From contig JAUUZE010000001.1 in NCBI GenBank assembly GCA_030590175.1, positions 1 through 48,441 on the forward strand: a stretch of DNA of 48,441 nt, given 5' to 3'. The notes below the pieces were generated by a model. That model was not told the DNA's origin, ran no database searches, and saw only the letters and a list, made by a program, of their open reading frames with translations. Position 1 is the stretch's first letter. Each line of letters begins with the position of its first letter. This stretch comes from Clostridia bacterium. GTDB taxonomy: Bacteria > Bacillota > Clostridia > DUPQ01. Both the position numbers and the translations under genes were made by a program. Positions 1,627-44,493 of this stretch are shown here, piece after piece.

Positions 1627-1647
1627 TTTGATGATTAAATCATCAAA
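1627..1647. repeat. Conserved palindrome copy 1 (TTTGATGAT-TAA-ATCATCAAA)
   Basis: Perfect 9+3+9 palindrome, stem extended by CC/GG. Lies between the stop at 1654 and the start at 1608. Confidence 0.95.
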
Positions 1648-1653
1648 GGAAAT

Positions 1654-2913
1654 TTAACCCCAATCATAAACTCCATCCCAGTTTATTGCCATACTATGCA
1701 TAGCTCCCATATCAGCAGCTAGCCAAAGATCACTACCTATACGTTCAAAAGCTGATCTTGGACCTTTATCTCCTAAACCAAGTTCACCATTATTATTATA
1801 ACCAGTTCCCCACATCTCACCATTTGTCTTTATAGCAAGAGTATTAGTTCTTTTATTAGCAACAGATTCCCACCCTGTTCCATCAAGCTGAACAAAAGAT
1901 GTTTCATCACCACCACCAGGAAGTCCCATTAAGTTATACTGATTACTTCCAGCTGCCCACATAATTCCACTATTTTTGATTAGAAATGATGAACCACTAT
2001 ATGCAGTTGAATAGTAACCACCACACTCAATAAAAGCATTATCTCTGCCAGCATCACTTATTTGAACAAAACTTTCTGTAGGAGTTGTATTTCCTATTCC
2101 GAACTGTCCATCATTATTTGAACCTGTCATCCATACTGAACCATCTATTCCAATAACGCCAGTAAAATAATAACCACAACTTACTTGTGAAACACTATTT
2201 AATGCACCTGTTAATACATCCCGCTTAAGTGTATCACCAAGTCCTAATGCTCCTTGATAACTATTTCCACAACTATAAAGATTACCAGCAGAATTTAATG
2301 CCATCGTAAAATAACTACCAGTTTTAACACTTATCCAATTTGATGCTGTTCCTACTTGTTCCCATGTATTTCTATTAGTTGCACCACCTAAACCAAGTTG
2401 TCCATAATTATTATAGCCTGTAGCCCAGAGTGTTCCATCATTTTTAATTGCTAAAGAATGTGTATATATAGGAGATGTAGAAACATCCGTCCAAATACCA
2501 GATATTTGCTCCCAAGATGTTCTTGCAATCTCATCACCAAGTCCAAGACATCCATGCTGGTTTGCACCTATTCCCCACATAGCTCCATAATTTGTTATAA
2601 TAAGTGTATGAGAACCTCCAGCCGAAACTTTTTTATAATAAGTATCATTAACAATCTTATCAAATACAACTCTATTTAATGCATCACCAGTAACTCCAGG
2701 TGCACTATTTCCCATTCTATGATTTAAGCCATACCCAGAACCATAAAGTGTTCCACCAGGAGGTTTAACCTGATCAGTCGAGGGTAATTCTACTGGCCAA
2801 TAACCACAAGGATAATGTTTATCTGTACGTCCTGGTTCATCTGTATGAAATGGATTATTAATATAGCCACCATCTTTATACATTTTTGAAAGTGGCCAAG
2901 TTGGATTACTCAT
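1654..2913 (-). CDS. RCC1-repeat (beta-propeller) protein, probable receptor-binding/tail-associated
   Basis: Repeated motifs of the form G..W..G.N..GQLGLG recur about 7 times (e.g. GTLWATGYNNYGQLGLG, GEMWGTGYNNNGELGLGD). These are typical of RCC1/BLIP-II propellers. Confidence 0.75.
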   Translation of the reverse strand: MSNPTWPLSKMYKDGGYINNPFHTDEPGRTDKHYPCGYWPVELPSTDQVKPPGGTLYGSGYGLNHRMGNSAPGVTGDALNRVVFDKIVNDTYYKKVSAGGSHTLIITNYGAMWGIGANQHGCLGLGDEIARTSWEQISGIWTDVSTSPIYTHSLAIKNDGTLWATGYNNYGQLGLGGATNRNTWEQVGTASNWISVKTGSYFTMALNSAGNLYSCGNSYQGALGLGDTLKRDVLTGALNSVSQVSCGYYFTGVIGIDGSVWMTGSNNDGQFGIGNTTPTESFVQISDAGRDNAFIECGGYYSTAYSGSSFLIKNSGIMWAAGSNQYNLMGLPGGGDETSFVQLDGTGWESVANKRTNTLAIKTNGEMWGTGYNNNGELGLGDKGPRSAFERIGSDLWLAADMGAMHSMAINWDGVYDWG

Positions 2914-2915
2914 AA

Positions 2916-3410
2916 TTAAACTCCTACATCAGGTGAACCTACAATAACCTGTCCTTTATAATTACAAATAGCTGAAGCTTTTGGAAGATCAGTATTAATA
3001 CTATATTGTTGTGTTACTGGCGAACGAACTACAACAACATTACTATTACTCATATAAATATAATCTCGAAAATCTACAGCATCCCATGTTGAACCAACTG
3101 TAAGTCCTGATATTTTAGAAACTAAACTTCCATCAACCAGTTCAAATATCTCAGTTTCACCACAAACTATAATATGATTTATAAAAATAAATGCTTGTGG
3201 ATAAGGAAATGCATCAGTTATAACACTTGTATCAATACTTGATAAACTATCTAATGCCCATAAAAGATTATCTCTACCAACAGCTCCAGAACAACTAACC
3301 ATATAACCAGAATTTCTTCCAACTCTTTCAACTGGTCGAAGTCCTTTTTGTAAGTCACTTCCATCAATTGTAAGCATAAATCTTTTATTTCTATTAGTAT
3401 CAAGTTTCAT
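2916..3410 (-). CDS. Hypothetical virion-module protein (164 aa)
   Basis: ORF track entry. Its start overlaps the stop of the upstream gene (ATGA-type coupling at 3410). Confidence 0.65.
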   Translation of the reverse strand: MKLDTNRNKRFMLTIDGSDLQKGLRPVERVGRNSGYMVSCSGAVGRDNLLWALDSLSSIDTSVITDAFPYPQAFIFINHIIVCGETEIFELVDGSLVSKISGLTVGSTWDAVDFRDYIYMSNSNVVVVRSPVTQQYSINTDLPKASAICNYKGQVIVGSPDVGV

Positions 3411-3769
3411 TAGATATTTCCATTATAATTAAGTTTTAATTCTGAACGATTAGGAATATGATTTACATCTAATTTATTAACTACTCCCATTCTTTCTTTA
3501 ATTATTGGAATAGCTTTTTTAATAACCTCTTCATACTCAAGTCCAGGATTATCACCATCTATTTCCTCCAAAATATGAGCAACCAGGGATTTATTATTTT
3601 TAAATTCTGGATATTCAGAATATAATTTAACATTAAGTTTGCTCAACGTTGCCTGTGATGTCATTAAGTTTCCAATAATATCAGGAAGTTTTAAAAAAAT
3701 CTGTTCAATTATTTCATTTTTAAGAATCTCTCTTTCTTCATTATTCATAGCCATCTCCCATTTCTTCAA
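3410..3769 (-). CDS. Hypothetical protein (119 aa; true start may be the ATG at 3748)
   Basis: ORF track entry. It overlaps 3741..4469 by 29 nt, and the internal ATGs at 3754 or 3748 would give a conventional short overlap. Confidence 0.6.
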   Translation of the reverse strand: MKKWEMAMNNEEREILKNEIIEQIFLKLPDIIGNLMTSQATLSKLNVKLYSEYPEFKNNKSLVAHILEEIDGDNPGLEYEEVIKKAIPIIKERMGVVNKLDVNHIPNRSELKLNYNGNI

Positions 3770-4469
3770 TATCAGTCATTTTTTCCTCAACTATATCCAT
3801 ATCAATATCAATTAGATCTTTTCTTATAATTTCTTCCCATTCGCCTCTTGCTTTTATATTTCGATAAGATATTTCAACCTGTCGAAGTGCAGCAGTTATA
3901 AGAGTTGAAGGAGTTTCAATAGACCAAAAATTTTCATCAGCATCAAGAGTTAATTTTTTCTGATAAAATTTTCCAAAAATCTCGATATCAAAAGCTTCAT
4001 CAACTGGAGGTAGAATTAATATTCCTCGATAATCATAGCTAGATGACTTTGTATAATTGATGAAGATTCCAATACTATCTTTATCAGCTACATCAATCTC
4101 CCTAAGTTTTGCTAGAGTATAATATAAAGGTGCACCAGTAGAAATATCAGCAATAGGACTATCATATAAATCCCTTAATTCATCCCAATCTACTTTTTCA
4201 AGGTGAACTCTATCAGTAGCATTATTCGCCCAGACATCTTTAATAACTCTACAACGCTCTTGAAATTCAATATAATAATCATCAGGAAAAATAGTTTTAA
4301 TTATTCTACCTTCAGATTCTGGAACAACCACTCCCTGTCGATCAAGATAATCTTGACCAGAATTGATAAAATAATCTGCACCATTATCAGCATATGAAGT
4401 AGTATCAATAACTAAATCATATCGACCACTTTGTTTAACAAATTCAGTTCTAATTTCAAGTAGATCCAT
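3741..4469 (-). CDS. Hypothetical virion protein (242 aa)
   Basis: ORF track entry in the structural arm downstream of the capsid gene. Confidence 0.65.
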   Translation of the reverse strand: MDLLEIRTEFVKQSGRYDLVIDTTSYADNGADYFINSGQDYLDRQGVVVPESEGRIIKTIFPDDYYIEFQERCRVIKDVWANNATDRVHLEKVDWDELRDLYDSPIADISTGAPLYYTLAKLREIDVADKDSIGIFINYTKSSSYDYRGILILPPVDEAFDIEIFGKFYQKKLTLDADENFWSIETPSTLITAALRQVEISYRNIKARGEWEEIIRKDLIDIDMDIVEEKMTDIEEMGDGYE

Positions 4470-4712: not shown

Positions 4713-4721
4713 AACATTTCC

Positions 4722-4742
4722 TTTGATGATTTAATCATCAAA
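4722..4742. repeat. Conserved palindrome copy 2 (centre TTA)
   Basis: Perfect core. Adjacent to a small GGGAG/CTCCC hairpin at 4743-4758. Confidence 0.95.
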
Positions 4743-4781
4743 GGGAGATTTTACTCCCCTGATGACAATTAAAGATTAATT

Positions 4782-4994: not shown

Positions 4995-5062
4995 TAAATT
5001 AAGTTTAACTTTATATTAATAATATCTTTTTGATGAAAAATTACTATAGAAATTAACTCCCC

Positions 5063-5083
5063 TATGATGATTAAATCATCAAA
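5063..5083. repeat. Conserved palindrome copy 3 (variant TATGATGAT-TAA-ATCATCAAA), core of an extended 17-bp-stem hairpin at 5055-5091
   Basis: AACTCCCCTATGATGAT TAA ATCATCAAAGGGGAGTT has one A.A mismatch. It starts 9 nt after the capsid gene stop (5100) in the mRNA sense. Confidence 0.95.
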
Positions 5084-5099
5084 GGGGAGTTAAAATAAT

Positions 5100-7019: not shown

Positions 7020-7034
7020 ATTTATTACCTCCCC

Positions 7035-7055
7035 TTTGATGATTAAATCATCAAA
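7035..7055. repeat. Conserved palindrome copy 4 (centre TAA)
   Basis: Perfect core between the stop at 7068 and the start at 7019. Confidence 0.95.
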
Positions 7056-7067
7056 GCGATTATATTA

Positions 7068-12444: not shown

Positions 12445-12455
12445 ATTAATGCCCC

Positions 12456-12476
12456 TTTGATGATTAAATCATCAAA
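12456..12476. repeat. Conserved palindrome copy 5 (centre TAA)
   Basis: Perfect core between the stop at 12486 and the start at 12444. Confidence 0.95.
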
Positions 12477-12485
12477 GCATTTTAT

Positions 12486-15582: not shown

Positions 15583-15594
15583 ATTAGACCCTCC

Positions 15595-15615
15595 TTTGAT
15601 GATTTAATCATCAAA
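15595..15615. repeat. Conserved palindrome copy 6 (centre TTA)
   Basis: Perfect core between the stop at 15621 and the start at 15582. Confidence 0.95.
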
Positions 15616-15620
15616 GCATT

Positions 15621-17260: not shown

Positions 17261-17285
17261 TAGACGATTCCTTTATTTCCATCCC

Positions 17286-17306
17286 TTTGATGATTTAATC
17301 ATCAAA
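17286..17306. repeat. Conserved palindrome copy 7 (centre TTA)
   Basis: Perfect core 25 nt upstream of the LamG gene start at 17260. Confidence 0.95.
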
Positions 17307-17312
17307 GGAGAT

Positions 17313-18726: not shown

Positions 18727-19248
18727 CTATTCAGAAATATCAAATTCAGCGTCAACAACATCACTATTATCACGAGCTCTATTTTTCATCTCTTCAATAT
18801 CTTTATCTGTGAAATAATTATGATTTTCACTTAAGACTTTCTTAACTGGCGAAAACCCAGCTCGATCAAGATTACTTTCAGCAACCTTAGCCCGGAGATT
18901 AATACCAGCTTTCTTACCATCACCAGTTCCAGCAATAATATCATTAAGCAAATTAAGACTCTTTGGAGCCATTCTCATTATATCTCTGGAAATCTCAATA
19001 GCATTAACATCTCTGGCTGCCACCATCAGGGCAAGTCGTTCTTGAACAGCAGGAGAATTACGAATACTTGAGACATGTTCTTGAGTAATCCCCATTCGCT
19101 TAGCAATCTCAATATTTTTATAGCCAAGCATAATATAGCGCATTACTTCATGATGCATTTCCCAAAGCTTGCCAACCTGCCAAGTCTTGTTTCCGGTTTT
19201 ACGAAGATCATTACCACGCCCAGGATTGCTATACTTTTCAATTGTCAT
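18727..19248 (-). CDS. HTH DNA-binding protein (LuxR / sigma-70 region-4-like), first gene of the leftward arm
   Basis: YKNIEIAKRMGITQEHVSSIRN is a helix-turn-helix. I shortened the track ORF (to 19311) to the ATG at 19248, because the TTG at 19311 is part of a consensus -35 hexamer. Confidence 0.6.
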   Translation of the reverse strand: MTIEKYSNPGRGNDLRKTGNKTWQVGKLWEMHHEVMRYIMLGYKNIEIAKRMGITQEHVSSIRNSPAVQERLALMVAARDVNAIEISRDIMRMAPKSLNLLNDIIAGTGDGKKAGINLRAKVAESNLDRAGFSPVKKVLSENHNYFTDKDIEEMKNRARDNSDVVDAEFDISE

Positions 19249-19282: not shown

Positions 19283-19311
19283 ATTATAACACACGGTAAT
19301 ACCCTTGTCAA
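19283..19311 (-). promoter_or_regulatory. Consensus sigma70-type promoter, leftward (TTGACA-17-TATAAT)
   Basis: The minus strand reads TTGACA (19311-19306), then a 17-nt spacer, then TATAAT (19288-19283). Confidence 0.75.
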
Positions 19312-19366
19312 CGATAAAATTCCATAAAATTTAAACAGCGATTATTACCCACTGGCTAAACCCCGC

Positions 19367-19387
19367 TTTGATGATTAAATCATCAAA
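19367..19387. repeat. Conserved palindrome copy 8 (centre TAA)
   Basis: Perfect core about 55 bp upstream of the leftward -35 element. Confidence 0.95.
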
Positions 19388-19420
19388 GGGAATCCAATCA
19401 CAGCTACAACTTGGCTTATG

Positions 19421-19466
19421 ATTCAAACCGGATCAGGATTCGAGCCGGATCAGGATTCGAGCCGGA
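19421..19466. repeat. 17-bp tandem repeat (CCGGATCAGGATTCGAG, about 2.7 copies), GC-rich
   Basis: Units at 19428-19444 and 19445-19461 are identical, with partial units on both sides. Confidence 0.9.
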
Positions 19467-19484
19467 CGCCAAGATCATTATAGT

Positions 19485-19520
19485 GCTCGCGCCCCACCTG
19501 CTCGCGCCCCACCTGCTCGC
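19485..19520. repeat. 15-bp tandem repeat (GCTCGCGCCCCACCT x2 plus a partial unit), GC-rich
   Basis: Units at 19485-19499 and 19500-19514 are identical. Confidence 0.9.
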
Positions 19521-19662
19521 TCAATCGTGCCAGGGCACAGGGATTTGATTTACACAAATATGTTGGAGGTTTAGAATTATATAAAAATTCTACAGAGTCT
19601 TAATATATCATACCATAACTAAAAATTCCCCCATCGAGAATAATATCTATATAAAAATAAAT

Positions 19663-19690
19663 TTGACAAATGTTTTTTTTCTGTTATGAT
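19663..19690 (+). promoter_or_regulatory. Sigma70-type promoter, rightward early (TTGACA-16-TATGAT)
   Basis: TTGACA at 19663-19668 and TATGAT at 19685-19690. An upstream ATAAAAATAAA tract is shared with the other rightward promoters. Confidence 0.7.
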
Positions 19691-19879
19691 GTAATCAAAT
19701 GTCAAACAGTTCTTTTACATAACACAATATTTAATATTGTGCCCTTTGTGGAAACAAGCATATCAGGGCTAGACATTGATATAGCTAGGACTGCTCAATG
19801 CACAAAGGTTATTAAGGGTCATTATAATTATAATGATTATAAACTCTAATATGGACAGGATCCATAAAGGAGAATAATT

Positions 19880-20287
19880 ATGATAAGAAAAATGAATCAG
19901 ATACATATTGGTGGCGACAAGGTTGACAATCCTTGTCACGTGGATATAGAACTTGATTGTGAAGGTGTTACCCTAGACCAGGCGTTGGATATGCTTTGTG
20001 CAGCGAGCAGTCCCAGGGTCAAAGCACAAGCCCGACTACGAGATATGCCAGCAGTTGAGTTAGCGGAAAAGGCTAAAAACGGCTGGAAAGTCAAGCTTGG
20101 TGATTTGTACACTAGACAAGCCCACACGACAAAGGTTATCAAGATCAATACCCTGGATGATGCACTGGCAACATTCAGCGAGCGAGACGAGTTCATCAGT
20201 AAGTGTTTGGAAGCCTGGGGTGATATAGGAAGTAAAGAACAGTTCAATAAAATCTATGATCGATATCATTCAAATGAAATAGAATAA
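19880..20287 (+). CDS. First early protein (135 aa), unknown function, locally GC-rich
   Basis: ORF track entry with a strong SD (AAAGGAG) 7 nt upstream. Its GC content is visibly higher than the rest of the phage. Confidence 0.7.
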   Translation: MIRKMNQIHIGGDKVDNPCHVDIELDCEGVTLDQALDMLCAASSPRVKAQARLRDMPAVELAEKAKNGWKVKLGDLYTRQAHTTKVIKINTLDDALATFSERDEFISKCLEAWGDIGSKEQFNKIYDRYHSNEIE

Positions 20288-20337
20288 CCAACAAATAACT
20301 AACAAATAATCATCCTGTTCATAATAGAGTTTATAAT

Positions 20338-20415
20338 CCACTTTAATGATCCACTTTAATGATCGGGTTTAATGATCCACTTTAATGATCGGGTTTAATG
20401 ATCGCCTTTGATGAT
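20338..20415. repeat. Six tandem 13-bp units (NNNNTTTAATGAT x5, then CGCCTTTGATGAT, which is the left arm of palindrome copy 9)
   Basis: Units start at 20338, 20351, 20364, 20377, 20390 and 20403. The prefix alternates CCAC/CGGG. Confidence 0.9.
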
Positions 20416-20427
20416 TAAATCATCAAA
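20407..20427. repeat. Conserved palindrome copy 9 (centre TAA)
   Basis: Perfect core. First member of a doublet with 37-bp spacing. Confidence 0.95.
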
Positions 20428-20443
20428 GCAAATCATAATCGCC

Positions 20444-20464
20444 TTTGATGATTTAATCATCAAA
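20444..20464. repeat. Conserved palindrome copy 10 (centre TTA)
   Basis: Perfect core. Second member of the doublet. Confidence 0.95.
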
Positions 20465-20493
20465 GGGGTTTAAACCAAACAGGAGTAATAATC

Positions 20494-20625
20494 ATGTCAT
20501 TTAAAGATATGTGTTATGCTAGACAAAAGTATTTTGCCCAGCAAAAGCGGATTCATAGAATACGGATATTTAGTAAAGTTATCCAGATCATAATCGGTAT
20601 AGTTCTTATGTATGTTTGTATATAA
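20494..20625 (+). CDS. Unannotated small ORF (43 aa) with a hydrophobic C-terminus (MSFKDMCYARQKYFAQQKRIHRIRIFSKVIQIIIGIVLMYVCI)
   Basis: My translation. AGGAG lies 8 nt upstream of ATG 20494. It falls below the ORF-track cut-off. Confidence 0.4.
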   Translation: MSFKDMCYARQKYFAQQKRIHRIRIFSKVIQIIIGIVLMYVCI

Positions 20626-20641
20626 ATTAGATAATTGATGT

Positions 20642-20695
20642 AACCGTTTTAACCGTTTTAACCGTTTTAACCGCATTAACCACATGAACCGGGGT
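20642..20695. repeat. Six 9-bp-phased units starting with AACCG (AACCGTTTT x3, AACCGCATT, AACCACATG, AACCGGGGT)
   Basis: Read directly from the sequence, with exact 9-bp periodicity. Confidence 0.9.
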
Positions 20696-20725
20696 AGGGC
20701 TTCCCTCATGGGCGGGCTGGTAGGT

Positions 20726-20761
20726 GGTTATGATGGTTATGATGGTTATGATGGTTATGAT
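20726..20761. repeat. 9-bp tandem repeat GGTTATGAT x4, followed by a TG-rich run and an A10 tract
   Basis: Four identical units. GTGTGTGTGT follows at 20773-20782 and an A-run at about 20790-20799. Confidence 0.9.
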
Positions 20762-20926
20762 GGGTAGTTGTTGTGTGTGTGTAGTGTATAAAAAAAAAAT
20801 TTAAAGATTCTAGAAACAAATACAAAACTAAATATAAACAACTAAACAAACACAGATACTATATATAAGAGTTATGGAGCAGGTTAATCATAACCATATT
20901 GGCATCGTTGGAGGGAAGGGCTGGGG

Positions 20927-20980
20927 CGGTTAATCTGGTGCATGCGGTTAATCCGGTTAATCCGGTTCATCCGGTTCGGG
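20927..20980. repeat. Six 9-bp-phased units, five starting with CGGTT (reverse complement of AACCG): CGGTTAATC x3, CGGTTCATC, CGGTTCGGG, plus one degenerate unit
   Basis: Units start at 20927, (20936 degenerate), 20945, 20954, 20963 and 20972. The orientation is inverted relative to 20642-20695. Confidence 0.85.
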
Positions 20981-21020
20981 CGCAAGCACTATAATAATAT
21001 TACTAATGAGCCTTCAGCGA

Positions 21021-21060
21021 ATCAAATCGAATCAAATTAGATCAAATTAGATCAAAATAA
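21021..21060. repeat. 10-bp tandem repeat (ATCAAATNNA x4) immediately upstream of the promoter at 21084
   Basis: The four units are ATCAAATCGA, ATCAAATTAG, ATCAAATTAG and ATCAAAATAA. Confidence 0.85.
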
Positions 21061-21083
21061 TTATCAATAGATAAAAATAATGG

Positions 21084-21112
21084 TTGACATGATGATTATT
21101 TTATGGTATTGT
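21084..21112 (+). promoter_or_regulatory. Sigma70-type promoter, rightward (TTGACA-17-TATTGT with an extended -10 TGG)
   Basis: TTGACA at 21084-21089 and TGG-TATTGT at 21104-21112. The ATAAAAATAA tract lies upstream. Confidence 0.6.
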
Positions 21113-21145
21113 TGTGGAAAGTGAATGATAATAATAACGATCCGC

Positions 21146-21166
21146 TATGATGATTTAATCATCAAA
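21146..21166. repeat. Conserved palindrome copy 11 (variant TATGATGAT-TTA-ATCATCAAA)
   Basis: Stem extended by ATCCGC/GCGGAT (21140-21172). It lies in the predicted leader of the 21084 promoter, 41 nt before the ATG at 21208. Confidence 0.95.
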
Positions 21167-21207
21167 GCGGATTATAAAATAAATTTAAACTATGAAAGGG
21201 GAAAATT

Positions 21208-24828: not shown

Positions 24829-24846
24829 AAATAACAAATAATCTCC

Positions 24847-24867
24847 TTTGATGATTTAATCATCAAA
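24847..24867. repeat. Conserved palindrome copy 14 (centre TTA)
   Basis: Perfect core with a TCC/GGA stem extension, 25 nt before the ATG at 24893. Confidence 0.95.
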
Positions 24868-24892
24868 GGACGATTATTATTAAAGGAATATT

Positions 24893-25653: not shown

Positions 25654-25682
25654 TTGACACCTTATATTTAATAATATATAAT
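25654..25682 (+). promoter_or_regulatory. Perfect consensus sigma70 promoter, rightward (TTGACA-17-TATAAT)
   Basis: TTGACA at 25654-25659 and TATAAT at 25677-25682. The ATAAAAATTTT tract lies upstream. Confidence 0.8.
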
Positions 25683-27808: not shown

Positions 27809-27813
27809 TCTCC

Positions 27814-27834
27814 TTTGATGATTTAATCATCAAA
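27814..27834. repeat. Conserved palindrome copy 15 (centre TTA)
   Basis: Perfect core starting 5 nt after the stop at 27808. Confidence 0.95.
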
Positions 27835-27860
27835 GGAAACGGGAAAGGAGGTAATATAAA

Positions 27861-29584: not shown

Positions 29585-29605
29585 AAATCTGGGCTAAACA
29601 ATCGC

Positions 29606-29626
29606 TATGATGATTAAATCATCAAA
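29606..29626. repeat. Conserved palindrome copy 16 (variant TATGATGAT-TAA-ATCATCAAA)
   Basis: The core has one A.A mismatch. Its AAGGAG flank lies 12 nt before the ATG at 29642. Confidence 0.95.
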
Positions 29627-29641
29627 GGAGAATTAATAACT

Positions 29642-30862: not shown

Positions 30863-30873
30863 GATTAATTAAG

Positions 30874-30909
30874 CTAATCAGCTGGTAATAAATATCAGCT
30901 GATTAGTTT
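30874..30909 (+). terminator. Rho-independent terminator candidate
   Basis: An 11-bp perfect stem (CTAATCAGCTG / CAGCTGATTAG) with an 11-nt loop, followed by TTT. Confidence 0.65.
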
Positions 30910-30936
30910 AACATATAAACAATAAGGAGTAAACTA

Positions 30937-31931: not shown

Positions 31932-31945
31932 CCAATAACATTTGC

Positions 31946-31966
31946 TTTGATGATTTAATCATCAAA
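31946..31966. repeat. Conserved palindrome copy 17 (centre TTA), 14-bp stem
   Basis: The core is extended by TTTGC/GCAAA (31941-31971). Confidence 0.95.
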
Positions 31967-32001
31967 GCAAAACCAATTAACAGGGAGAATTAATAATAAC
32001 T

Positions 32002-33342
32002 ATGAAACTTGATATTATTCCAATATCTAATATTAATATTGGTAAGCGTTTTAGAAAAGATTATGGTGATCTTGATGATCTTGCTTTATCAATTAAAAGT
32101 AAGGGTCTTATCTGTCCTATAGCTGTATCAAAAATAGATAATGAAGATAATGAAGATAATGAAGATAATACATTTAAACTCGCTGCTGGTGGTCGCCGAC
32201 TAGCTGCTCATAAATTATTAGAACTTCAAACTATTCCTTGTCGTATCTATGATCATGATTTATCTGATCTTGAACTACGATCAATTGAACTTGAGGAAAA
32301 TATTAAACGAAAGGAGCTGGGTTATCTTGAAGAAATAAAACTTAAGGATGAAATTTTAAATCTTCAACAAGCTATTCATGGTAAGAAAACTTCTAAAAAT
32401 TCAGATGCAACTGGTGTATCTATGCGTGATGTTGCTGATCTTATCGGAGTAGATCAATCAACATTATCAAAGGATATTTCTCTTAATAGTTTTGTAGAAG
32501 AATTTCCTGAAGTTGAGTGGGATAAAATGAATAGTAAATCAGAAGCTCTCAAAATGAAAAATAAAATTGAAGAAAGTTTTATTAGAGCTGAAATGTCTAA
32601 ACGAGCTAGAGAAACAATTGGAGACAGTGGAAGTTCTATTTTTATTAACAAACTAATAAACTCATATATCATTAAAGATTTTTTTGTTGGAGTTAAAGAT
32701 ATTCCTGATAATTCTATTAATTTTATTGAGATTGACCCTCCATATGCTATTGATTTAAAAACTGCTAAAAAACAATACGCTTATGAACATGAAAAATATA
32801 ATGAGATTATTTCTGATGATTATCCTGAATTTCTTGATGAACTTTTCTCAGAATCTTATCGTGTTATGAGTGAAAATTCTTGGTTAATTTGCTGGTTTGC
32901 TCCAGAACCTTGGTTTGACGTAGTTTATAATTCTATAATAAGGGCAGGATTTAAAACTAATCGAATGTGTGGACTTTGGATAAAACCAACTGGTCAAACT
33001 AAATCACCTTCGTTAAACCTTGCTAATCAATATGAGATGTTTTTTTATGCTAAAAAAGGAAATCCGGTTCTAGCTATTCCAGGACAATTAAATGCTTTCC
33101 ATCACCCAGCTGTTTCACCAACTAAAAAACTCCACCCAACAGAACGACCAATTGAACTTCTTGATGATATATTAACTACTTTTGCAACTGAAAATTCTCG
33201 TGTTCTTGTTCCATTTGCTGGAAGTGGTAATACTCTTATATCAACAGCTAAAAATAAAATGATTCCGATAGGTTTTGATCTTACTGAAGAATATAAAAAT
33301 TCTTATATATTAAAAATTCAAGAGATGTTTAAGGAGAGCTAA
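32002..33342 (+). CDS. ParB-like N-terminal domain fused to a DNA (N6-adenine/N4-cytosine) methyltransferase
   Basis: ParB-box-like KLAAGGRRLAAH, catalytic IEIDPPYA (DPPY), and the SAM motif VPFAGSGNT near the C-terminus (beta-class order). Confidence 0.8.
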   Translation: MKLDIIPISNINIGKRFRKDYGDLDDLALSIKSKGLICPIAVSKIDNEDNEDNEDNTFKLAAGGRRLAAHKLLELQTIPCRIYDHDLSDLELRSIELEENIKRKELGYLEEIKLKDEILNLQQAIHGKKTSKNSDATGVSMRDVADLIGVDQSTLSKDISLNSFVEEFPEVEWDKMNSKSEALKMKNKIEESFIRAEMSKRARETIGDSGSSIFINKLINSYIIKDFFVGVKDIPDNSINFIEIDPPYAIDLKTAKKQYAYEHEKYNEIISDDYPEFLDELFSESYRVMSENSWLICWFAPEPWFDVVYNSIIRAGFKTNRMCGLWIKPTGQTKSPSLNLANQYEMFFYAKKGNPVLAIPGQLNAFHHPAVSPTKKLHPTERPIELLDDILTTFATENSRVLVPFAGSGNTLISTAKNKMIPIGFDLTEEYKNSYILKIQEMFKES

Positions 33343-33344: not shown

Positions 33345-34001
33345 ATGAAGCTAATAAAACCAAGTTTTGATATTTTATTTATTTCACCTAAACCACTTGA
33401 AACAATTGAAATGGCTGGAAGAACTTGTTATAAATCAGAAGATAAAATAACTAAGAATTCTGCAGAAAAATTTATTAAGATGATTATTAAAAATAGTCAC
33501 TATTCAGTAATTGAGCATGTAAATATGTCAGTGAGAATCATCTGTGATAGAGGAGTATCACATGAGATTGTTCGTCATCGACTTGTATCATATAGTCAGG
33601 AAAGTACAAGATACTGTAATTATGCAGGAGAAGTTACTTTTATTATCCCTCCTTGGATAGATATTGAAGAAGGAGAATATGCTCTTCCTTATTACGAAGA
33701 TCAACCAGGATACCCAGAACTTTTTTGGTATAAAAGTTTGATTCATGCTGAAAAAGAATATAAAAACTTACTTTATTCAGGATGGTCTCCTCAGCAGGCT
33801 CGTTCCGTTCTTCCAAATTCACTTAAAACTGAAATCATAGTGTCAGCAAATATGCGAGAGTGGATACATATTTTTAAATTAAGAACCTCCAAAGCAGCTC
33901 ATCCACAAATGAGAGAAATAATGATTCCTCTTTTAAAAGAAGTAGAAAGAAAAATTCCAATAATCTTTGATGATATTAATAAATCCCCTTTGATGATTTA
34001 A
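33345..34001 (+). CDS. thyX: Flavin-dependent thymidylate synthase ThyX
   Basis: The ThyX signature RHRLVSYSQESTRY and a typical size of 218 aa. Confidence 0.9.
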   Translation: MKLIKPSFDILFISPKPLETIEMAGRTCYKSEDKITKNSAEKFIKMIIKNSHYSVIEHVNMSVRIICDRGVSHEIVRHRLVSYSQESTRYCNYAGEVTFIIPPWIDIEEGEYALPYYEDQPGYPELFWYKSLIHAEKEYKNLLYSGWSPQQARSVLPNSLKTEIIVSANMREWIHIFKLRTSKAAHPQMREIMIPLLKEVERKIPIIFDDINKSPLMI

Positions 34002-34009
34002 TCATCAAA
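33989..34009. repeat. Conserved palindrome copy 18 (centre TTA), overlapping the 3' end of thyX
   Basis: The last thyX codons (...SPLMI) and the TAA stop (33999-34001) lie inside the palindrome. GGG then TTTT follows. Confidence 0.95.
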
Positions 34010-34037
34010 GGGTTTTGAAATATGGAGAATAATAATT

Positions 34038-38367: not shown

Positions 38368-38378
38368 TTATAATCCCC

Positions 38379-38399
38379 TTTGATGATTAAATCATCAAA
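38379..38399. repeat. Conserved palindrome copy 19 (centre TAA)
   Basis: Perfect core, 11 nt after the stop at 38367 and 28 nt before the ATG at 38428. Confidence 0.95.
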
Positions 38400-38427
38400 G
38401 GAATTTAAATAATAAGGAAAAATAAAT

Positions 38428-38814
38428 ATGACAGATGAAAAAGGACTTACAATAGAAAATCAAGAAGATATAAAATTACTTAGATCAATAGCAACAACAC
38501 TTCATACTCTTCTATGTAATCGAAAACATAATAGTGAAGATCAAACTTGCTGTCAATTCTATTCTAATGAAATATTTTCTGCACATCATGAAGATCTTTG
38601 GGCTGAAGAATCACATAAAGATTGGATTCAAATAACTAAAGTTTTAATGAAACTGAATCATGTACAAGAAAAGGAGATGTTTATAATTCTTGAAAACATA
38701 TCAAAAGTTATTCTAGATATATCTAATCTATTATCTAAATATCCAAAGATGTATAATATAATAAAAGAAGTAATTGAAAGTATATTTACAAACCACCCTT
38801 CAAGCCAGAACTAA
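38428..38814 (+). CDS. Hypothetical protein (128 aa), last gene of the rightward arm
   Basis: ORF track entry with SD AAGGAAAA. Its 3' end overlaps the convergent 1412-aa gene by 29 nt. Confidence 0.6.
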   Translation: MTDEKGLTIENQEDIKLLRSIATTLHTLLCNRKHNSEDQTCCQFYSNEIFSAHHEDLWAEESHKDWIQITKVLMKLNHVQEKEMFIILENISKVILDISNLLSKYPKMYNIIKEVIESIFTNHPSSQN

Positions 38815-41800
38815 TACCACCAATACCACCACTTCGTTTTTTCTTCTTATGACTCTTGGAATCAATTTTTGGCAAACTTACTAATTGTTTAGCCCAAGAG
38901 TCATAATAATCTGTAGGATAACTCTTATTCCAAGCATTAGCTACTTTTGAAGCTGTTCCCCAATATTGAAAATGTTCTTCTGTTCCTTCGAATAATCCTT
39001 TCTGACTTATCACAGAATATAAATCCAGAACTGGAGACATATAAATATCTGGATTTGCAAACTTAAATCCTTTCTCTGTCGGTTTTATAAAATGACTAAT
39101 GAATGGTGGATGTAAGAATAGTTCTAAAACACTAGTATCATTTGCTCTAGCGATACTTTCAGCTATTCCAACATACATAAGATATCTCATAAATCTTGTT
39201 CTATAACTAGTTCCAAAAACATCTTTCTCACCTTTAAGAGCCTTCTTAATTATATCATATTTATATTCAAGAAGTTTTATTGGAGTCATTGTAAACATAG
39301 TAAATGCTCTAGCTCCAGTACCTTTCATCCACAATGCCTGATCACTTTGACCTCTAAAATTTGAATCAAGAATATTTTTCCAGATAGCTTTTTGAACTTT
39401 TTCCATTGGCATCTTACCAACACCTGACATAATCCCTGCCATAACATTAATACCATTTTCAAATGCTTCGATTGCAACAGTTGGCTGAGCTAAAAGAGCT
39501 TTAACTCTTTGTGATCCTTCTCTAAATCCTGGAATTTGATCTAATTCCGCCACAATATTTTTCTGTTTTATAAAAGCACTAATAACATCTAACTCATGTC
39601 CTTTTGGCTCACGTCCAAAAGTTTTTTTAAATGCTTGACCAGCTGCTTTGAAAGCTAATTTACTAGCTTGAATATTAGCTTTTGTACTATATATTGCAAA
39701 TGTCCCTGGAAGCTTTAATAAATGCTTAAGTCCAACACTAAGTGAAGCACCTATAAGTCTAAGATATTCAAAATCTACAAGTTTATCAACACCATGTTCC
39801 ATTAACCTAGATACTCCAGTCTCATGTTTTCGATATAGATTTTTATCTATCCACTCATTGTATAAACTACGTAAACCAGTATCTGCTCCAGCCATAGTTT
39901 GAGCAAACCTATTAAAGAATGGTTGATGAGCTAGCTTCTTCTCAACCATAGGAATATATACATCTAGAATTTGACTTGCATCTGGTATCCATATTCTACC
40001 GTTTGGCATCTGTCTTTGAAAATCCATAATTTCAGGAGCTTTAAGTTTCTTAAAAAACCCAACATCTTTAGGATTATCAAGAACTGAATTCCAGAGTCTA
40101 GTCATATATGTTTCTTTTTTATCAATAGGTATACCAACATCTTGAAGATGTTCTTTCTTTGTTAAAAAATATTCTTTTAATCTTCTTGATAAAAACATTT
40201 CATCAGCATTAAGTTTAACTTCTGGATGCTGTTTAAGTTGTTCAAGTTTCTTAAGAGCATTCTGATATCGTTTTGATTTCATAAGAGTTTCAGATCTATT
40301 CGACTCATGAACTCCTTGAATATATTCATTTAGACTTTTAATTCTTTGTTGTGGTAACTGCCCACCAGCATGTAGAGTAGCCTTAACAACTGGCTCATTA
40401 TATAGCTTAACTATATTAATATCATAATCTTCTGGTAATCCTTTTAGTCTTTTTCCAATATTTTTACTTTGTAATTTTAATTTCTCTAACCTCTCTTCAT
40501 ATTTTTTCTTTTTATCTTTTGGTGACTTTTTAATTTGTCTCTTAATAACATCTATCTGTCTACCGATACTATTTCTCTTATTAATATCAGGTCTATATTT
40601 TTCATAAACAGGATCAAGAACATCACTAATTCTTTTCAATCTATCTTTTTTATCTTTATCAAATCTCTTAAATAAATCCTGTTTCCATTTTGAATAATTA
40701 CTAATATTTGTATGAAAAGCAATATTAGATTGTTGCATATCTATTACAGGATTATCTATTAAATCAAAAGCTTTTTCAAATTGATAATGAGGACTTGCAA
40801 GATCTTTCTTAATATCTTTTTTAATCTTAGGAACTCTCTCAACATTAATTCCTGATTTCATATGTTGTGGAAGTTCATAAGAACCTTTTTTATAACCTTT
40901 AACTATCACACCCTGATCTAATAAGTATTGATGAAATTCTGATAATTTTTCCTTAGGAGTATTATCTATAATTCTCTTATCTATCTCCATTTGTACAGCA
41001 GTTTTCTTTGCTTGATCAAGTTTACTTTTTGCATCAGAAAAATCTTTAGCATCAAACTCTTTAAGTTCCTTTTGCATCTGCCTATTAATAAACTCATCAA
41101 CAATTAGTGCTTCTTTTTCTGAATAACCAGCATCTAACAAATACCTAAGAACTTCTATCCCTTCTTCTTTAGCTGCCTTAATAATATTTCTAAGTTGCTG
41201 AACTCGCTCTGGTGGGAGTGGACCAGTTGATATTGATCCTCGCTCATCTTTAAGAATCTCTTTAACACTATCCATAAGTTCTGCTAATAATTCTGAATCT
41301 CTTCCAACACCTTTAGAAAAACTATCATCAGCCATATCAAAGATATCACTCATAGTTGTTTCAACTATATCTTCTTTTGTTTCAGCTGCTTCAAGTTTTT
41401 CTTTAAGTGGTCTCTTAGCATCAAGTAAAATATCAGCTCTATCACCGAGCTGTTTTTCTACTTTAATATGATCTATACCTGTCAATATTCTATCTACATA
41501 TTCATTAACTTGTACAAATCTAGGATCATTAGTTGGAGCTTCACTTATTAAACTCTTTAATTCTTTTTCAACATTTAGAATAATATCTGTATCACCTGGC
41601 TTCTCTATCCACTCTCTCATTACTTCACCAAGAGCATCAATCTCTTGCATTAACTCATCTGGTTCTTTAACATACTTATATGTTCTATCTTTCATTGAAG
41701 GAATTTTATCTTCATCAGTTAATTCTTTCAGCAACTTTCTTCTTTTTTCTGTCATTTTATCTTTAGGAATAATATCCCCTTTGATGATTAAATCATCAAA

Positions 41801-43024
41801 GGGTTTTTCACCACTCTTAATAGCCTCACCTTCCAATTTCTCTAAGTTATCTTGAAATACTGTTTCTTCTTCAACTATTGATTCAGCAGGCTTTTTAATA
41901 TCAGCTTCAGCTTTATCATATTCTACCATTTTATCTTTTATAGCTTTTCTAATAAATTCAGGACTTGCATCTTCTGGAAAAGTCATAGTTGTTTCTCTAC
42001 CTTTTTCCATAATTGTATACAGTTGTCGTGCAGGAAGTTTACCAAATCCCTGTTGTCCACCAGTATCTTCAAATCTAATATCAACGCCCAGATCTTTAGC
42101 CTCTTTCAAAACAACATCAGGTTTATAATTTGGATCTGGTTCATTAAATGTTATTTTAGTTTCTCCACTTTCAGCAACTTGTTCATCAAGTTTATTAAGT
42201 TTCTCACGTTCAATCTGCATTTCTCGTTTAGCTTCTTCAGGAACCTCTTCAACTACTCTTTCATGAACTTCTTTGGTGTCACGAACTACACTTTCCAACT
42301 CAGTTTTAATTCCTTCAACCTCTGCTTTAACATCTGGGTCTTTAATTTCTTTAAGATCAATTCCTTTAATATCATCAGCTAAGTCAGTAAATTCTTCTTG
42401 TGTAAGTTTTTTAGTTTTAATTCTACGTTTCATACCTTCAATTTTACTCTTAACTTTTTTAATTCCTCCTGCACCAACTTCATGATAACCTTTAAAAGCT
42501 AATAATTCAATAAACTTAGCCATACCAAAAGCAGCTACATCAATAACTTCATCAGGAATAAATGTATCAAGCTCTTTAAATTGTGCTAGATTTTTTTCTA
42601 TCTGTTCAGATGGAACCATTACCTCAATTCCATGACTAACTTTCTTAACAACACTTTCAGGTATTTCTGGCTGTTGACCTATATCAAAAAATTCCTTTGA
42701 AAATTTAGTTATCATTCCAGGCTGGAGAGTAACTTTACTAGCAGCTTCAACAGCCTGGTCTCTAGCTTCACGTATAGTCATTTTTGGATCTACTATTCCA
42801 CGACCTATAGCCATTGTCTCAGCACCAAGCCCAGGAAGAAACATTGTAGCACCATGAGTTAATGCTGCTGTTGCATCAATAGTTTCTATAGTACTAGCTC
42901 CAATATCCTTCCCGAATTGTTTAATAGAACTAAACATTCCTGGAGATTTTTCAACTGGTTTACGATCATCAGTTATCCTATTATCACCAATAGCATCTTG
43001 ATTACGATCATCAACTATATCCAT
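38786..43024 (-). CDS. Giant virion-internal / ejection or tape-measure-like protein (1412 aa)
   Basis: It is the longest ORF. It has a K/E-rich coiled-coil-like middle region and a Gly-rich C-terminal tail (SGGIGGISSGLKGGL), and it is the last gene of the virion arm. No enzymatic motif was recognised. Confidence 0.55.
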   Translation of the reverse strand: MDIVDDRNQDAIGDNRITDDRKPVEKSPGMFSSIKQFGKDIGASTIETIDATAALTHGATMFLPGLGAETMAIGRGIVDPKMTIREARDQAVEAASKVTLQPGMITKFSKEFFDIGQQPEIPESVVKKVSHGIEVMVPSEQIEKNLAQFKELDTFIPDEVIDVAAFGMAKFIELLAFKGYHEVGAGGIKKVKSKIEGMKRRIKTKKLTQEEFTDLADDIKGIDLKEIKDPDVKAEVEGIKTELESVVRDTKEVHERVVEEVPEEAKREMQIEREKLNKLDEQVAESGETKITFNEPDPNYKPDVVLKEAKDLGVDIRFEDTGGQQGFGKLPARQLYTIMEKGRETTMTFPEDASPEFIRKAIKDKMVEYDKAEADIKKPAESIVEEETVFQDNLEKLEGEAIKSGEKPFDDLIIKGDIIPKDKMTEKRRKLLKELTDEDKIPSMKDRTYKYVKEPDELMQEIDALGEVMREWIEKPGDTDIILNVEKELKSLISEAPTNDPRFVQVNEYVDRILTGIDHIKVEKQLGDRADILLDAKRPLKEKLEAAETKEDIVETTMSDIFDMADDSFSKGVGRDSELLAELMDSVKEILKDERGSISTGPLPPERVQQLRNIIKAAKEEGIEVLRYLLDAGYSEKEALIVDEFINRQMQKELKEFDAKDFSDAKSKLDQAKKTAVQMEIDKRIIDNTPKEKLSEFHQYLLDQGVIVKGYKKGSYELPQHMKSGINVERVPKIKKDIKKDLASPHYQFEKAFDLIDNPVIDMQQSNIAFHTNISNYSKWKQDLFKRFDKDKKDRLKRISDVLDPVYEKYRPDINKRNSIGRQIDVIKRQIKKSPKDKKKKYEERLEKLKLQSKNIGKRLKGLPEDYDINIVKLYNEPVVKATLHAGGQLPQQRIKSLNEYIQGVHESNRSETLMKSKRYQNALKKLEQLKQHPEVKLNADEMFLSRRLKEYFLTKKEHLQDVGIPIDKKETYMTRLWNSVLDNPKDVGFFKKLKAPEIMDFQRQMPNGRIWIPDASQILDVYIPMVEKKLAHQPFFNRFAQTMAGADTGLRSLYNEWIDKNLYRKHETGVSRLMEHGVDKLVDFEYLRLIGASLSVGLKHLLKLPGTFAIYSTKANIQASKLAFKAAGQAFKKTFGREPKGHELDVISAFIKQKNIVAELDQIPGFREGSQRVKALLAQPTVAIEAFENGINVMAGIMSGVGKMPMEKVQKAIWKNILDSNFRGQSDQALWMKGTGARAFTMFTMTPIKLLEYKYDIIKKALKGEKDVFGTSYRTRFMRYLMYVGIAESIARANDTSVLELFLHPPFISHFIKPTEKGFKFANPDIYMSPVLDLYSVISQKGLFEGTEEHFQYWGTASKVANAWNKSYPTDYYDSWAKQLVSLPKIDSKSHKKKKRSGGIGGISSGLKGGL
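41780..41800. repeat. Conserved palindrome copy 20 (centre TAA), located in frame inside the 1412-aa CDS
   Basis: Perfect core with CCC/GGG flanks. It encodes PFDDLIIKG within ...GEKPFDDLIIKGDIIP... Confidence 0.95.
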
Positions 43025-43848: not shown

Positions 43849-43889
43849 ACTAATACCAGTATTACTATCAGTATCAGCCGCATCTTTTG

Positions 43890-44423
43890 CTAGGGCGCCA
43901 GAAAATTTGGCGATAGAGTTTCAAAAATCTTTTTTGAATCTAATTCTGAAGTACCAGTTGCACCAGTTGCACCAACATCCTGTTCACCTTCAATAGTTGA
44001 ATCATCTGTTATATCAGCATCTATTTGAACATTACTTCCACCACCCTCTTTCTTTCCAGTTTGAATAACTTTATTTAATCCGGTTAATCCAGGAGCAGTA
44101 AAACTATCTTCCGCAGGAGTACGTCCACCAAGAATATCTGTAAATGCTTTCATTAGTCTTTCTTGGCTTTGGTTTTTTTGCCCAGCTATATCTTTTAAAG
44201 CTTTTTCACTTAGACTAGATTTAGCTAATTGAGTTCCAAGTCCAGCAAATATATTACCTTCATCACGACCAGCTAATCCACTACCAAGATAATCAAGAAT
44301 GATACTTGTAAGTTCTGGTTTTTCTTTCATAAAACCACCAACCTTACCAAATATTCCTCCTGCATCACCTTGCCCAGTTTGAACTTCATCACCTAAATTT
44401 TTTGCTACATCCATTGGATTCAT
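43890..44423 (-). CDS. Gly-rich hypothetical virion protein (177 aa)
   Basis: ORF track entry with SD GGAGA. It has Gly-rich amphipathic segments. Confidence 0.6.
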   Translation of the reverse strand: MNPMDVAKNLGDEVQTGQGDAGGIFGKVGGFMKEKPELTSIILDYLGSGLAGRDEGNIFAGLGTQLAKSSLSEKALKDIAGQKNQSQERLMKAFTDILGGRTPAEDSFTAPGLTGLNKVIQTGKKEGGGSNVQIDADITDDSTIEGEQDVGATGATGTSELDSKKIFETLSPNFLAP

Positions 44424-44434
44424 TTTAAATCTCC

Positions 44435-44455
44435 TTTGATGATTAAATCATCATA
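44435..44455. repeat. Conserved palindrome copy 21 (variant TTTGATGAT-TAA-ATCATCATA)
   Basis: One mismatch in the core. First member of a doublet with 38-bp spacing. Confidence 0.9.
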
Positions 44456-44472
44456 GCATTTATATTATCCCC

Positions 44473-44493
44473 TTTGATGATTAAATCATCAAA
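44473..44493. repeat. Conserved palindrome copy 22 (centre TAA)
   Basis: Perfect core with a CCC/GGG extension. Second member of the doublet. Confidence 0.95.

Follow-up and report, generated by a model that had tools for sequence, protein, structure and literature searches.

What reads a palindrome that recurs 22 times along a single phage genome in nearly the same letters? The window analyzed here, the whole stretch of 48,441 nucleotides (nt) from contig JAUUZE010000001.1, is a 48.4-kb phage genome, and the palindromic repeat is its most striking feature. Is the repeat recognized as double-stranded DNA, is it folded as RNA, or is it simply copied from place to place? The answer that we favor with moderate confidence is that the 23-bp palindromes are parS-like binding or loading sites read by a protein of the phage itself, the ParB-HTH-methyltransferase (HTH, helix-turn-helix), a 446-aa product encoded at 32002 to 33342 on the forward strand.

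We searched the window with the pattern TTTGATGATWWAATCATCAAA, allowing at most one mismatch, and used 100 shuffles of the window sequence as a null. Twenty-two sites matched, 18 of them perfectly and 4 with a single T>A change, in agreement with the original prediction, which had listed the same copies; the shuffled sequences gave no match. The C and the G that border this 21-mer are invariant in all 22 copies, so that the conserved core is 23 bp long, C-TTTGATGAT-WWA-ATCATCAAA-G. Outside the core, the flanks follow only a loose symmetric consensus (AAT-YYS-core-SRR-ATT) without pairwise coupling. When placement was judged against open reading frames (ORFs) called along three transcription arms, 20 of the 22 copies proved to be intergenic, one lay over the thyX stop codon, and one lay in frame within a 1,412-aa ORF, the same division as had been described earlier. 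The short distances first given between a stop codon, the palindrome, and the next start codon hold for most copies; the exceptions are those at 4722, which begins 39 nt after a stop codon, and at 5063, which ends 68 nt before the next start codon. The two doublets, 20407/20444 and 44435/44473, are spaced by 37 and 38 bp, respectively, as already noted from the sequence.

Is the element confined to this phage? More than 100 relatives of the capsid protein are found in IMG/VR, and the closest relative, IMGVR_UViG_3300005265_000060 (rel1; capsid 86% identical), carries at least 16 copies of CTWTGGTGAT-WWA-ATCACCAWAG, all of which are set apart from those of the window by an A>G change and its T>C counterpart. 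At least 10 copy junctions are orthologous between rel1 and the window; among them are those that follow the capsid and primase genes, those that precede the terminase module and the genes for the ATPase, the ParB-methyltransferase, and the polymerase, and that within the 1,412-aa gene. Some copy positions are kept out to phages at ∼45% protein identity. Identity within each genome, together with divergence between genomes at orthologous junctions, is the pattern expected of sites that are read by a co-evolving trans-acting factor.

The shared positions can be followed along the window. Copy 1 (1626 to 1648) lies between the 419-aa RCC1-like gene and the 144-aa gene, at a junction that is also occupied in rel1. 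Copy 3 (5062 to 5084), a TATG variant, is found directly downstream of the major capsid gene, a position filled in nearly all relatives; the post-capsid copy is inverted in two lineages and not inverted in two others. Copies are present at the orthologous positions of rel1 for copy 4 (7034 to 7056), for copy 5 (12455 to 12477), which stands upstream of the 117-aa and large terminase genes, for copy 16 (29605 to 29627), a TATG variant before the AAA_24 ATPase gene, and for copy 17 (31945 to 31967), located 35 nt upstream of the ParB-HTH-methyltransferase gene itself. Copy 18 (33988 to 34010), the one over the thyX stop codon, precedes the DNA polymerase gene, and a copy precedes the polymerase gene of rel1 as well. 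Copy 19 (38378 to 38400) follows the primase gene at a junction occupied both in rel1, by a doublet, and in Desulfofustis phage MD01. Copy 20 (41779 to 41801) is the in-frame copy, at codon ∼408 of the 1,412-aa ORF, where it encodes FDDLIIK; the rel1 ortholog of this gene has in-frame copies at codons ∼305 and ∼425, both with the center AAA, so that a stop codon is avoided. The second doublet of the window consists of copy 21 (44434 to 44456), a CATA variant, and copy 22 (44472 to 44494), and at this junction rel1 has a single copy.

Beyond rel1, the palindrome takes a form of its own in each of dozens of related uncultured phages and in Desulfofustis phage MD01. The version of MD01 is CTATGTCCCAA-N-TTGGGACATAG, and those of other relatives begin with CTATGGTGAAA, CTATGGTAAAT, or CTATGTTTAAT or take the forms CTATGGGGA-N5-.. 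and CTTTGTTC-N7-... Throughout the family, the length of the element is fixed, at 23 bp in one frame (frame A, CTWTG-N13-CAWAG) and at 25 bp in another (frame B, AGWT...AWCT), with a non-palindromic center of 1 to 7 nt. Across phages, it is the outer blocks that are conserved; the inner block is phage specific yet uniform within each genome. Copies in the relatives follow each other every 3 to 6 kb with a pooled coefficient of variation of 0.40, compared to 0.77 under the null, and none of 5,000 null draws was as low. The exact 21-mer pattern of the window was absent from IMG/VR, and the exact 23-mer pattern occurred in a metagenome collection as a single copy on one 1.3-kb contig. A degenerate 21-mer gave 49 scattered single hits in 185,579 genomes, one genome per species, with no contig carrying several sites. 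Searches of related phages and of host genomes had been proposed with the original prediction; the relatives carry compensating elements of their own, and the element is not abundant in any of the species genomes.

Could the copies instead be a selfish or recombinogenic repeat, similar to repetitive extragenic palindromes (REPs), miniature inverted-repeat transposable elements, or the promoter-stem-loop (PeSL) cassettes of T4, that spreads by copy-paste or gene conversion, marks cassette boundaries, and has no dedicated function? Window-specific genes are indeed bracketed by copies: copy 2 (4721 to 4743) adjoins the window-specific 70-aa and 77-aa genes, and copies 12 (23264 to 23286) and 13 (24027 to 24049) follow the first and the second of two tandem pentapeptide-repeat/DUF5758 paralogs. 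A post-portal copy with ∼45 bp of its flank is present in rel1 and absent from the window. However, such a repeat would not be expected to hold at least 10 positions in common with rel1, some of them out to ∼45% protein identity, to be retained in frame within a gene, or to be regularly spaced; no transposase or RAYT gene was found among the scanned ORFs, and no genome searched has the element in abundance. We consider this explanation quite improbable. The recombination at cassette boundaries proposed earlier may survive as a side effect, given the bracketed genes, but it leaves the concerted, position-conserved evolution of the copies unexplained.

Two related candidates were set aside. A host repeat of the REP or bacterial interspersed mosaic element type was rejected on the 49 scattered single hits and the lack of a transposase, with the proviso that the true host may be missing from the collection. 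A T4 PeSL cassette boundary was rejected as well: the element has no promoter, and most copies stand at conserved core-module junctions, although a few do bracket window-specific genes. The tandem paralogs themselves (22465 to 24007) each combine a pentapeptide repeat with DUF5758 and are each followed by their own palindrome, as if gene and site had been duplicated together; they have no homolog in rel1.

Which protein could be the trans-acting factor? The product of 32002 to 33342 is a fusion of a ParB_N domain (residues 5 to 102; Pfam E = 2.8e-9), a weak HTH_3 match (residues 138 to 157), and an N6/N4 methyltransferase (N6_N4, residues 239 to 433). It contains the motifs GGRR (box II), EENxxR (box III), DPPY, and PFxGSG, and its N terminus matches solved ParB, Noc, and Spo0J chains in the PDB by sequence. 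The HTH segment (residues ∼136 to 167, GVSMRDVADLIGVDQSTLSKDISL...) is encoded at 32407 to 32502 on the forward strand, and the recognition helix starts near D151-Q152. An AlphaFold2 model of residues 1 to 235, built from only three sequences (mean predicted local distance difference test score, 76.7), places helices at 141 to 148 and 152 to 167. The best Foldseek matches of this model are Noc, Noc bound to its site (NBS), ParB-parS, ParB-CDP, and KorB, over ∼175 to 185 columns that cover the N-terminal plus HTH domains. Comparison of 60 orthologs showed no variation in box II G-x-R-R, box III E-N-x-x-R, DPPY, or PFxGSG (G63, R65, R66, E99, N100, and R103 are among the invariant residues); one of the HTH positions that vary most is residue 152, at the beginning of the recognition helix. 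In each of the 48 family loci that span at least 15 kb, the gene stands shortly before that for the DNA polymerase. It is universal in the family, which makes its presence or absence uninformative as a test.

Does the recognition helix change together with the half-site? Our sample comprised 41 dereplicated orthologs with at least two elements in their own locus and was enlarged via ParB and polymerase loci. The helix of the window protein, DQSTLSKDI, goes with the half-site CTTTG-A-TGAT, and that of rel1, DHSTLSKDI, with CTWTG-G-TGAT. Both pairings, Gln with A and His with G, fit the usual side-chain-to-base preferences. Partial Mantel tests of half-site against helix, given the rest of the same protein, revealed a helix-specific signal in frame A (r = 0.28, P = 0.0007, n = 26) and in frame B (r = 0.37, P = 0.005, n = 15). 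Residue 152 covaries with half-site position 6: in frame A, His or Arg is present at this residue in all eight taxa with G at position 6, and neither is present in 16 of the 18 that have T or A there (Fisher P = 2.9e-5). Coupled switches separate the window (Q/A) from rel1 (H/G), whose proteins are 69% identical, and family locus L222 (His/G) from L227 (Pro/T), at 82% identity. The rule that His or Arg goes with G and other residues with T or A was written before the sample was enlarged, and all 13 taxa added afterwards obey it (4/4 and 9/9; exact P = 1/715). In one exception, L212, each element has one G half-site plus one T half-site. The protein of L201, only 42% identical overall, has a helix that starts DQSTLSK like that of the window, and its one element, CTATC-ATGATT-A-.., contains the window's inner block ATGATT. 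Isolated half-sites outside the palindromes number 63 versus 33 expected, a count confounded by GATGAT codons.

These data suggest that the original prediction was right about the kind of factor, a dimeric DNA-binding protein of the phage, and less so about its identity: it had named the HTH protein at 18727 to 19248, and the covariation points to 32002 to 33342. Might the palindromes nonetheless belong to another DNA-binding protein, be it this TerS-like, GerE-type HTH protein, an unrecognized small phage protein, or a host factor? Any binding protein that co-evolves with its sites would account for copies that are identical within a genome and diverge from phage to phage, and the TerS-like HTH gene adjoins the copy at 19367 and has a homolog in MD01. 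That homolog, however, is positioned and annotated as the small terminase, and no homolog was recovered in IMG/VR; the TerS-like protein is also unrelated to the "transcriptional regulator" annotated in MD01. Pfam scans of ∼40 other ORFs brought up no additional clear candidate for DNA or RNA binding. A host factor is unlikely, given that the sites of close relatives differ in sequence and that none of the genomes searched is enriched in them. With any other binder, covariation that is specific to the ParB recognition helix would be a coincidence, and we regard this explanation as unlikely. Host FNR, CRP, and IHF sites were rejected, as their spacing does not fit and close relatives differ.

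Is it the sequence of the element or its pairing that has been conserved? The original prediction had read complementary flanks as covariation that keeps a hairpin folded. The formal tests did not bear this out. At flank pair 2, 13 of the 22 copies have a Watson-Crick combination, compared to 12.8 expected from column composition, and five have C·C and four G·G; pairs 3 to 14 of the flanks pair at chance in the 22 copies; and the covariation score of a 19-pair helix was 0.094, versus 0.093 for shuffled alignments, with 238 of 500 shuffles as high. The complementary flanks quoted earlier were a selection. Within the core of rel1, 13 of 16 copies have A·A or T·T at pair 3 (CTATG with CAAAG, or CTTTG with CATAG), a mismatch excess over independence (Fisher P = 0.036). 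Across 18 loci, mismatches that would give G·U in the mRNA numbered 19 versus 35 that would give A·C, so G·U is not favored, and L066, L140, L138, and L154 have conserved outer blocks in which two or three positions are not complementary. Neither compensatory covariation nor a sense-strand preference for G·U was found, as a structured RNA held by base pairing should have. The copy at 19367 (copy 8, 19366 to 19388) stands in the spacer of predicted divergent promoters, 56 bp upstream of the −35 element of the leftward consensus promoter. Pair-3 mismatches, the lack of a G·U preference, non-complementary outer blocks, and this copy between promoters together favor a protein of fixed geometry that recognizes the duplex sequence. 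Reading by the ParB-HTH-methyltransferase is further in keeping with the placement of this copy and with the in-frame copies kept in the longest gene of both phages.

The same results bear on the proposal that the repeat acts as an RNA hairpin in polycistronic mRNAs, as an attenuator, processing site, or stabilizer recognized by a nuclease or RNA-binding protein of the phage with sequence specificity. Copies do stand between stop and next start codons inside transcription units, the post-capsid copy is present in nearly all relatives, and the predicted hairpins, which are A/U rich, fold at −10.6 to −25.9 kcal/mol. Besides the absence of covariation, the systematic A·A and T·T mismatches, the lack of a G·U preference, and the copy between divergent promoters, this proposal has to contend with stems of 10 to 12 bp, which are short for RNase III, with the absence of a U-tract after the stem (the sense-strand consensus downstream of the copies is GGRRNWTTAA), and with the covariation of the ParB HTH, which it leaves unexplained. 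No candidate RNA-binding protein or nuclease was found, and the window has no match to Rfam families or tRNAs. We found no specific support for the RNA processing or stability element suggested earlier and think a role of this kind improbable. Ordinary termination, which the original prediction had already discounted, can likewise be set aside: the stems are A/U rich, a U-tract is lacking, and the few copies that pass a lax scan for intrinsic terminators do so on either strand.

A further explanation would make the copies hairpin promoters for a virion RNA polymerase, as in phage N4. The stem with a 3-nt loop resembles such promoters, the mRNA-sense center is TTA in 16 of the 22 window copies, which would put a central purine on the template strand, and the 1,412-aa virion-module protein has no recognizable domain. 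However, the orientation bias of the center, although confirmed in the window, is absent from rel1, where the sense-strand centers are 7 TAA, 6 TTA, and 3 AAA. In addition, copies span early and late genes as well as coding sequence; the element of the relatives abuts the Shine-Dalgarno sequence and so leaves no leader; the MD01 homolog of the large protein matches a polyvalent-protein domain rather than a polymerase; and consensus sigma-70 promoters are present. This explanation, which gained no specific support since it was first raised, is in our opinion very improbable. A T7-like promoter, based on the resemblance of TCACCATAGGGA to TCACTATAGGGAGA, was also rejected, with an orientation that points against the genes and no polymerase gene found among the scanned ORFs.

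What, then, weighs against the ParB-HTH-methyltransferase as the reader of these sites? Some of the points are at home with an RNA-level role. In many copies the 3′ end, CAAAGG(A/G)G, is or directly abuts a Shine-Dalgarno sequence. Downstream of the 133-aa gene, a palindrome doublet in rel1 has its place taken in the window by an unrelated hairpin with a 19-bp stem. The asymmetric variants found in some relatives are mostly co-oriented with transcription (∼3:1 overall; 4 of 4 in L140), and a symmetric dimer site does not predict co-orientation of asymmetric elements. Other points concern the protein. A C-terminal dimerization domain is absent, its place at the C terminus being taken by the N6_N4 methyltransferase; no ParA-type ATPase was found among the scanned ORFs, the sole ATPase being AAA_24; the sites of ParB, Noc, and KorB measure 13 to 16 bp versus 23 to 25 bp in this phage family; and fusions of ParB_N with a methyltransferase occur in many phages for which no such repeats are reported. 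The helix-to-site covariation, finally, is a statistical one drawn from sequence comparison. An earlier, smaller sample showed no helix-specific signal in frame A (partial r = 0.07, P = 0.30), and this result thus depends on sample size; and L144, with His and T, is an unexplained exception.

If the ParB-HTH-methyltransferase does read the palindromes, how might it do so? A dimer would read the two half-sites of 10 to 11 bp (C-T-W-T-G plus the phage-specific inner block) with one HTH each, and residue 152 would read position 6 of the half-site, Q152 being matched to TTTGATGAT and the His152 version to TTTGGTGAT. If ParB/parS, Noc/NBS, and KorB/OB are a guide, the sites would be loading points at which a clamp gated by nucleoside triphosphate (NTP) closes and from which it slides onto neighboring DNA; the fused methyltransferase would then preferentially modify the phage genome. 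Alternatively, the complex could serve as a genome-wide transcriptional regulator or roadblock of a KorB-like type. A clamp-loading role would fit the invariant NTPase motifs, the regular spacing, the sites kept within the longest gene, and the irrelevance of orientation in the window, and a KorB-like role would fit the sites at gene boundaries and in the early leader. Physical binding, NTP-dependent sliding, and the outcome of methylation or binding are the parts of this scheme that we infer, and we are less confident of any particular downstream role than of the protein as the reader of the sites. In a more general form, which we offer tentatively and hold to be doubtful, such proteins would be site-loaded sliding enzymes: each phage would maintain its own parS-like sites every 2 to 5 kb, also inside very long genes, so as to confine methylation or another clamp activity to its own DNA, and site and helix would co-evolve as a code private to the lineage.

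If true, these sites would be the first candidate target site for a widespread, uncharacterized class of phage ParB-methyltransferases. The enzymes would become testable by means of a defined 23-mer, a predicted specificity residue (Gln152 for A, His or Arg for G), and dozens of natural protein-site pairs, which would also be a source of orthogonal protein-and-operator pairs. The ParB/parS principle would then extend from segregation and plasmid regulation to an apparently lytic phage that controls or marks its own genome.

How are the sites arranged with respect to the rest of the genome? The rightward replication arm encodes a ligase, a PD-(D/E)XK nuclease, the AAA_24 ATPase, the ParB-methyltransferase, ThyX, a family A DNA polymerase, and a primase. 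The leftward arm, which runs across the window ends, encodes the TerS-like HTH protein, an amidase, the large terminase, the portal, the capsid, and the 1,412-aa virion-module protein. Between the starts of the two divergent arms lies an iteron-rich region, at 19.4 to 21.1 kb, where the sign of the GC skew switches. Integrase, repressor, RNA polymerase, and transposase genes were not found among the scanned window ORFs, and the carrier looks like a lytic phage. A near-DNA search of GenBank phages gave no match to the window. The closest deposited genome is that of Desulfofustis phage LS06-2018-MD01, with the same gene order and a terminase 44% identical; the pink-berry phage paper that describes it does not mention the repeats.

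The region from 19400 to 21100 resembles an origin. It is flanked by divergent consensus promoters and contains tandem iteron arrays of eight different kinds, among them a 17-mer (2.8 copies), a 15-mer (2.5), a 13-mer (6.2), 9-mers (4.6, 4.3, and 5.6), and a 10-mer (2.6). The 13-mer array (20336 to 20415, forward strand; CACTTTAATGATC / GGGTTTAATGATC, ∼6 copies) runs into the first palindrome doublet, that is, copy 9 (20406 to 20428), which it abuts, and copy 10 (20443 to 20465). Judging from its resemblance to the half-site TTTGATGAT, the 13-mer may provide extra half-sites, and its position next to the doublet hints at a link of the palindromes with the origin region. In the control region of MD01 (L132, 43143 to 43196), a 17-mer iteron, TAGTGGGATAATATCCC, repeated 3.2 times, adjoins two palindrome copies and contains the inner block of the MD01 palindrome (TCCCA/TGGGA) in an inside-out arrangement.

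Copy 11 (21145 to 21167), a TATG variant, is in the leader of the 21084 promoter; this location and that of copy 8 upstream of the leftward promoter are as the original prediction had them. Copies 6 (15594 to 15616), 7 (17285 to 17307), 14 (24846 to 24868), and 15 (27813 to 27835) were returned by the pattern search and complete the set. Perfect 12/12 sigma-70 consensus promoters, TTGACA-17-TATAAT, are located at 19283 to 19311 on the reverse strand and at 25654 to 25682 on the forward strand. The former overlaps the TTG with which the longest ORF called for the TerS-like HTH protein begins; the gene therefore probably starts at 19248.

Several other features of the window and its relatives were observed. 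The hairpin 3′ of the 133-aa gene (30869 to 30911) has a perfect 19-bp stem (−24.7 kcal/mol) without a U-tract. Where the arms converge, the last rightward gene (128 aa) and the leftward 1,412-aa gene overlap by 29 bp (38786 to 38814) with no terminator between them. Two adjacent paralogs of 279 and 288 aa (44504 to 46222), whose C termini weakly match Pfam Bacteriocin_IIc (class II bacteriocin with a double-glycine leader), correspond to one gene in MD01, and besides the pentapeptide-repeat genes the window carries a Pam3_gp32-like gene. Among the relatives, L049 has five copies of a motif (..TATGACTGACAAGAA..) spaced 78 bp apart at 2510 to 2836, unrelated to the palindromes and probably a repeat within a structural protein gene. 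In L168 (IMGVR_UViG_3300027914_000271), the 9-mer GCGATCGCC was counted four times with both strands pooled; it contains GCGATCGC, which we take to be the cyanobacterial HIP1 motif, and this suggests that some family members infect cyanobacteria.

With which known systems can the palindromes be compared? The promoters of the T7 group are 23-bp, phage-specific sequences present in ∼17 copies at orthologous intergenic positions, and they change in concert with the specificity element of one protein. They are asymmetric and need a phage RNA polymerase, whereas the window elements are dyad symmetric and no polymerase gene was found. The stoperators of Cluster A mycobacteriophages are targets of the immunity repressor in temperate phages. 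They are like the palindromes of the window in their many identical, phage-specific sites, located in short intergenic gaps on both arms and, as proposed for the palindromes, bound by one phage protein. They differ in that the window site is symmetric, with neither an integrase nor a repressor found; the stoperators are 13-bp, asymmetric sites strictly co-oriented with transcription (PMC4351075).

A likeness is also seen in Cluster O mycobacteriophages, in which a 17-bp repeat of unknown function, TGTTCGG-NNN-CCGAACA, is present in 34 copies in Corndog (PMC4351075). Like those of the window, these repeats have invariant arms, an A/T-rich 3-nt center, and dozens of copies, many intergenic and some coding, with no meaningful orientation and in an apparently lytic phage. 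Corndog gp90 (L285, 6425 to 7933), a 502-aa protein with a ParB_N domain and ∼400 residues without a significant Pfam domain, might be the reader of the Corndog repeats. The sequences and the lineage are unrelated to ours, and gp90 has no Pfam methyltransferase domain. If our reading is true, it would supply a testable explanation for genome-wide palindromes in other phages such as these.

The closest comparison is with ParB, Noc, and KorB themselves. Noc has ∼70 NBS sites, and KorB has 12 OB sites on RK2. Like these proteins, the 446-aa protein has the ParB N-terminal NTPase fold with invariant boxes II and III, followed by an HTH, and its model matches their structures; the window sites are dyad symmetric and dispersed, and the specificity residues of the HTH covary with the site. 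Unlike them, it ends in a methyltransferase where they have their dimerization domain, has no ParA partner, and is carried by an apparently lytic phage. Its domain architecture is that of the fusions in a 2025 survey, in which ParB-CTPase folds joined to N6_N4 methyltransferases are frequent in phages and among the commonest uses of the fold there, their role being left open as "perhaps" anti-defense (PMC12704722). Phage ParB-like proteins also activate T-dioxygenases, and the fold can thus partner with phage DNA-modifying enzymes as well as be fused to them (PMC13229309). A palindromic target site for methyltransferase fusions is unmentioned in the searched text of PMC12704722 and PMC13229309, and the string "palindrom" is absent from the former. 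With the fold, the HTH, and the site covariation present and the dimerization domain and ParA lacking, the phage protein and its palindromes would be a variant of the ParB/Noc/KorB kind.

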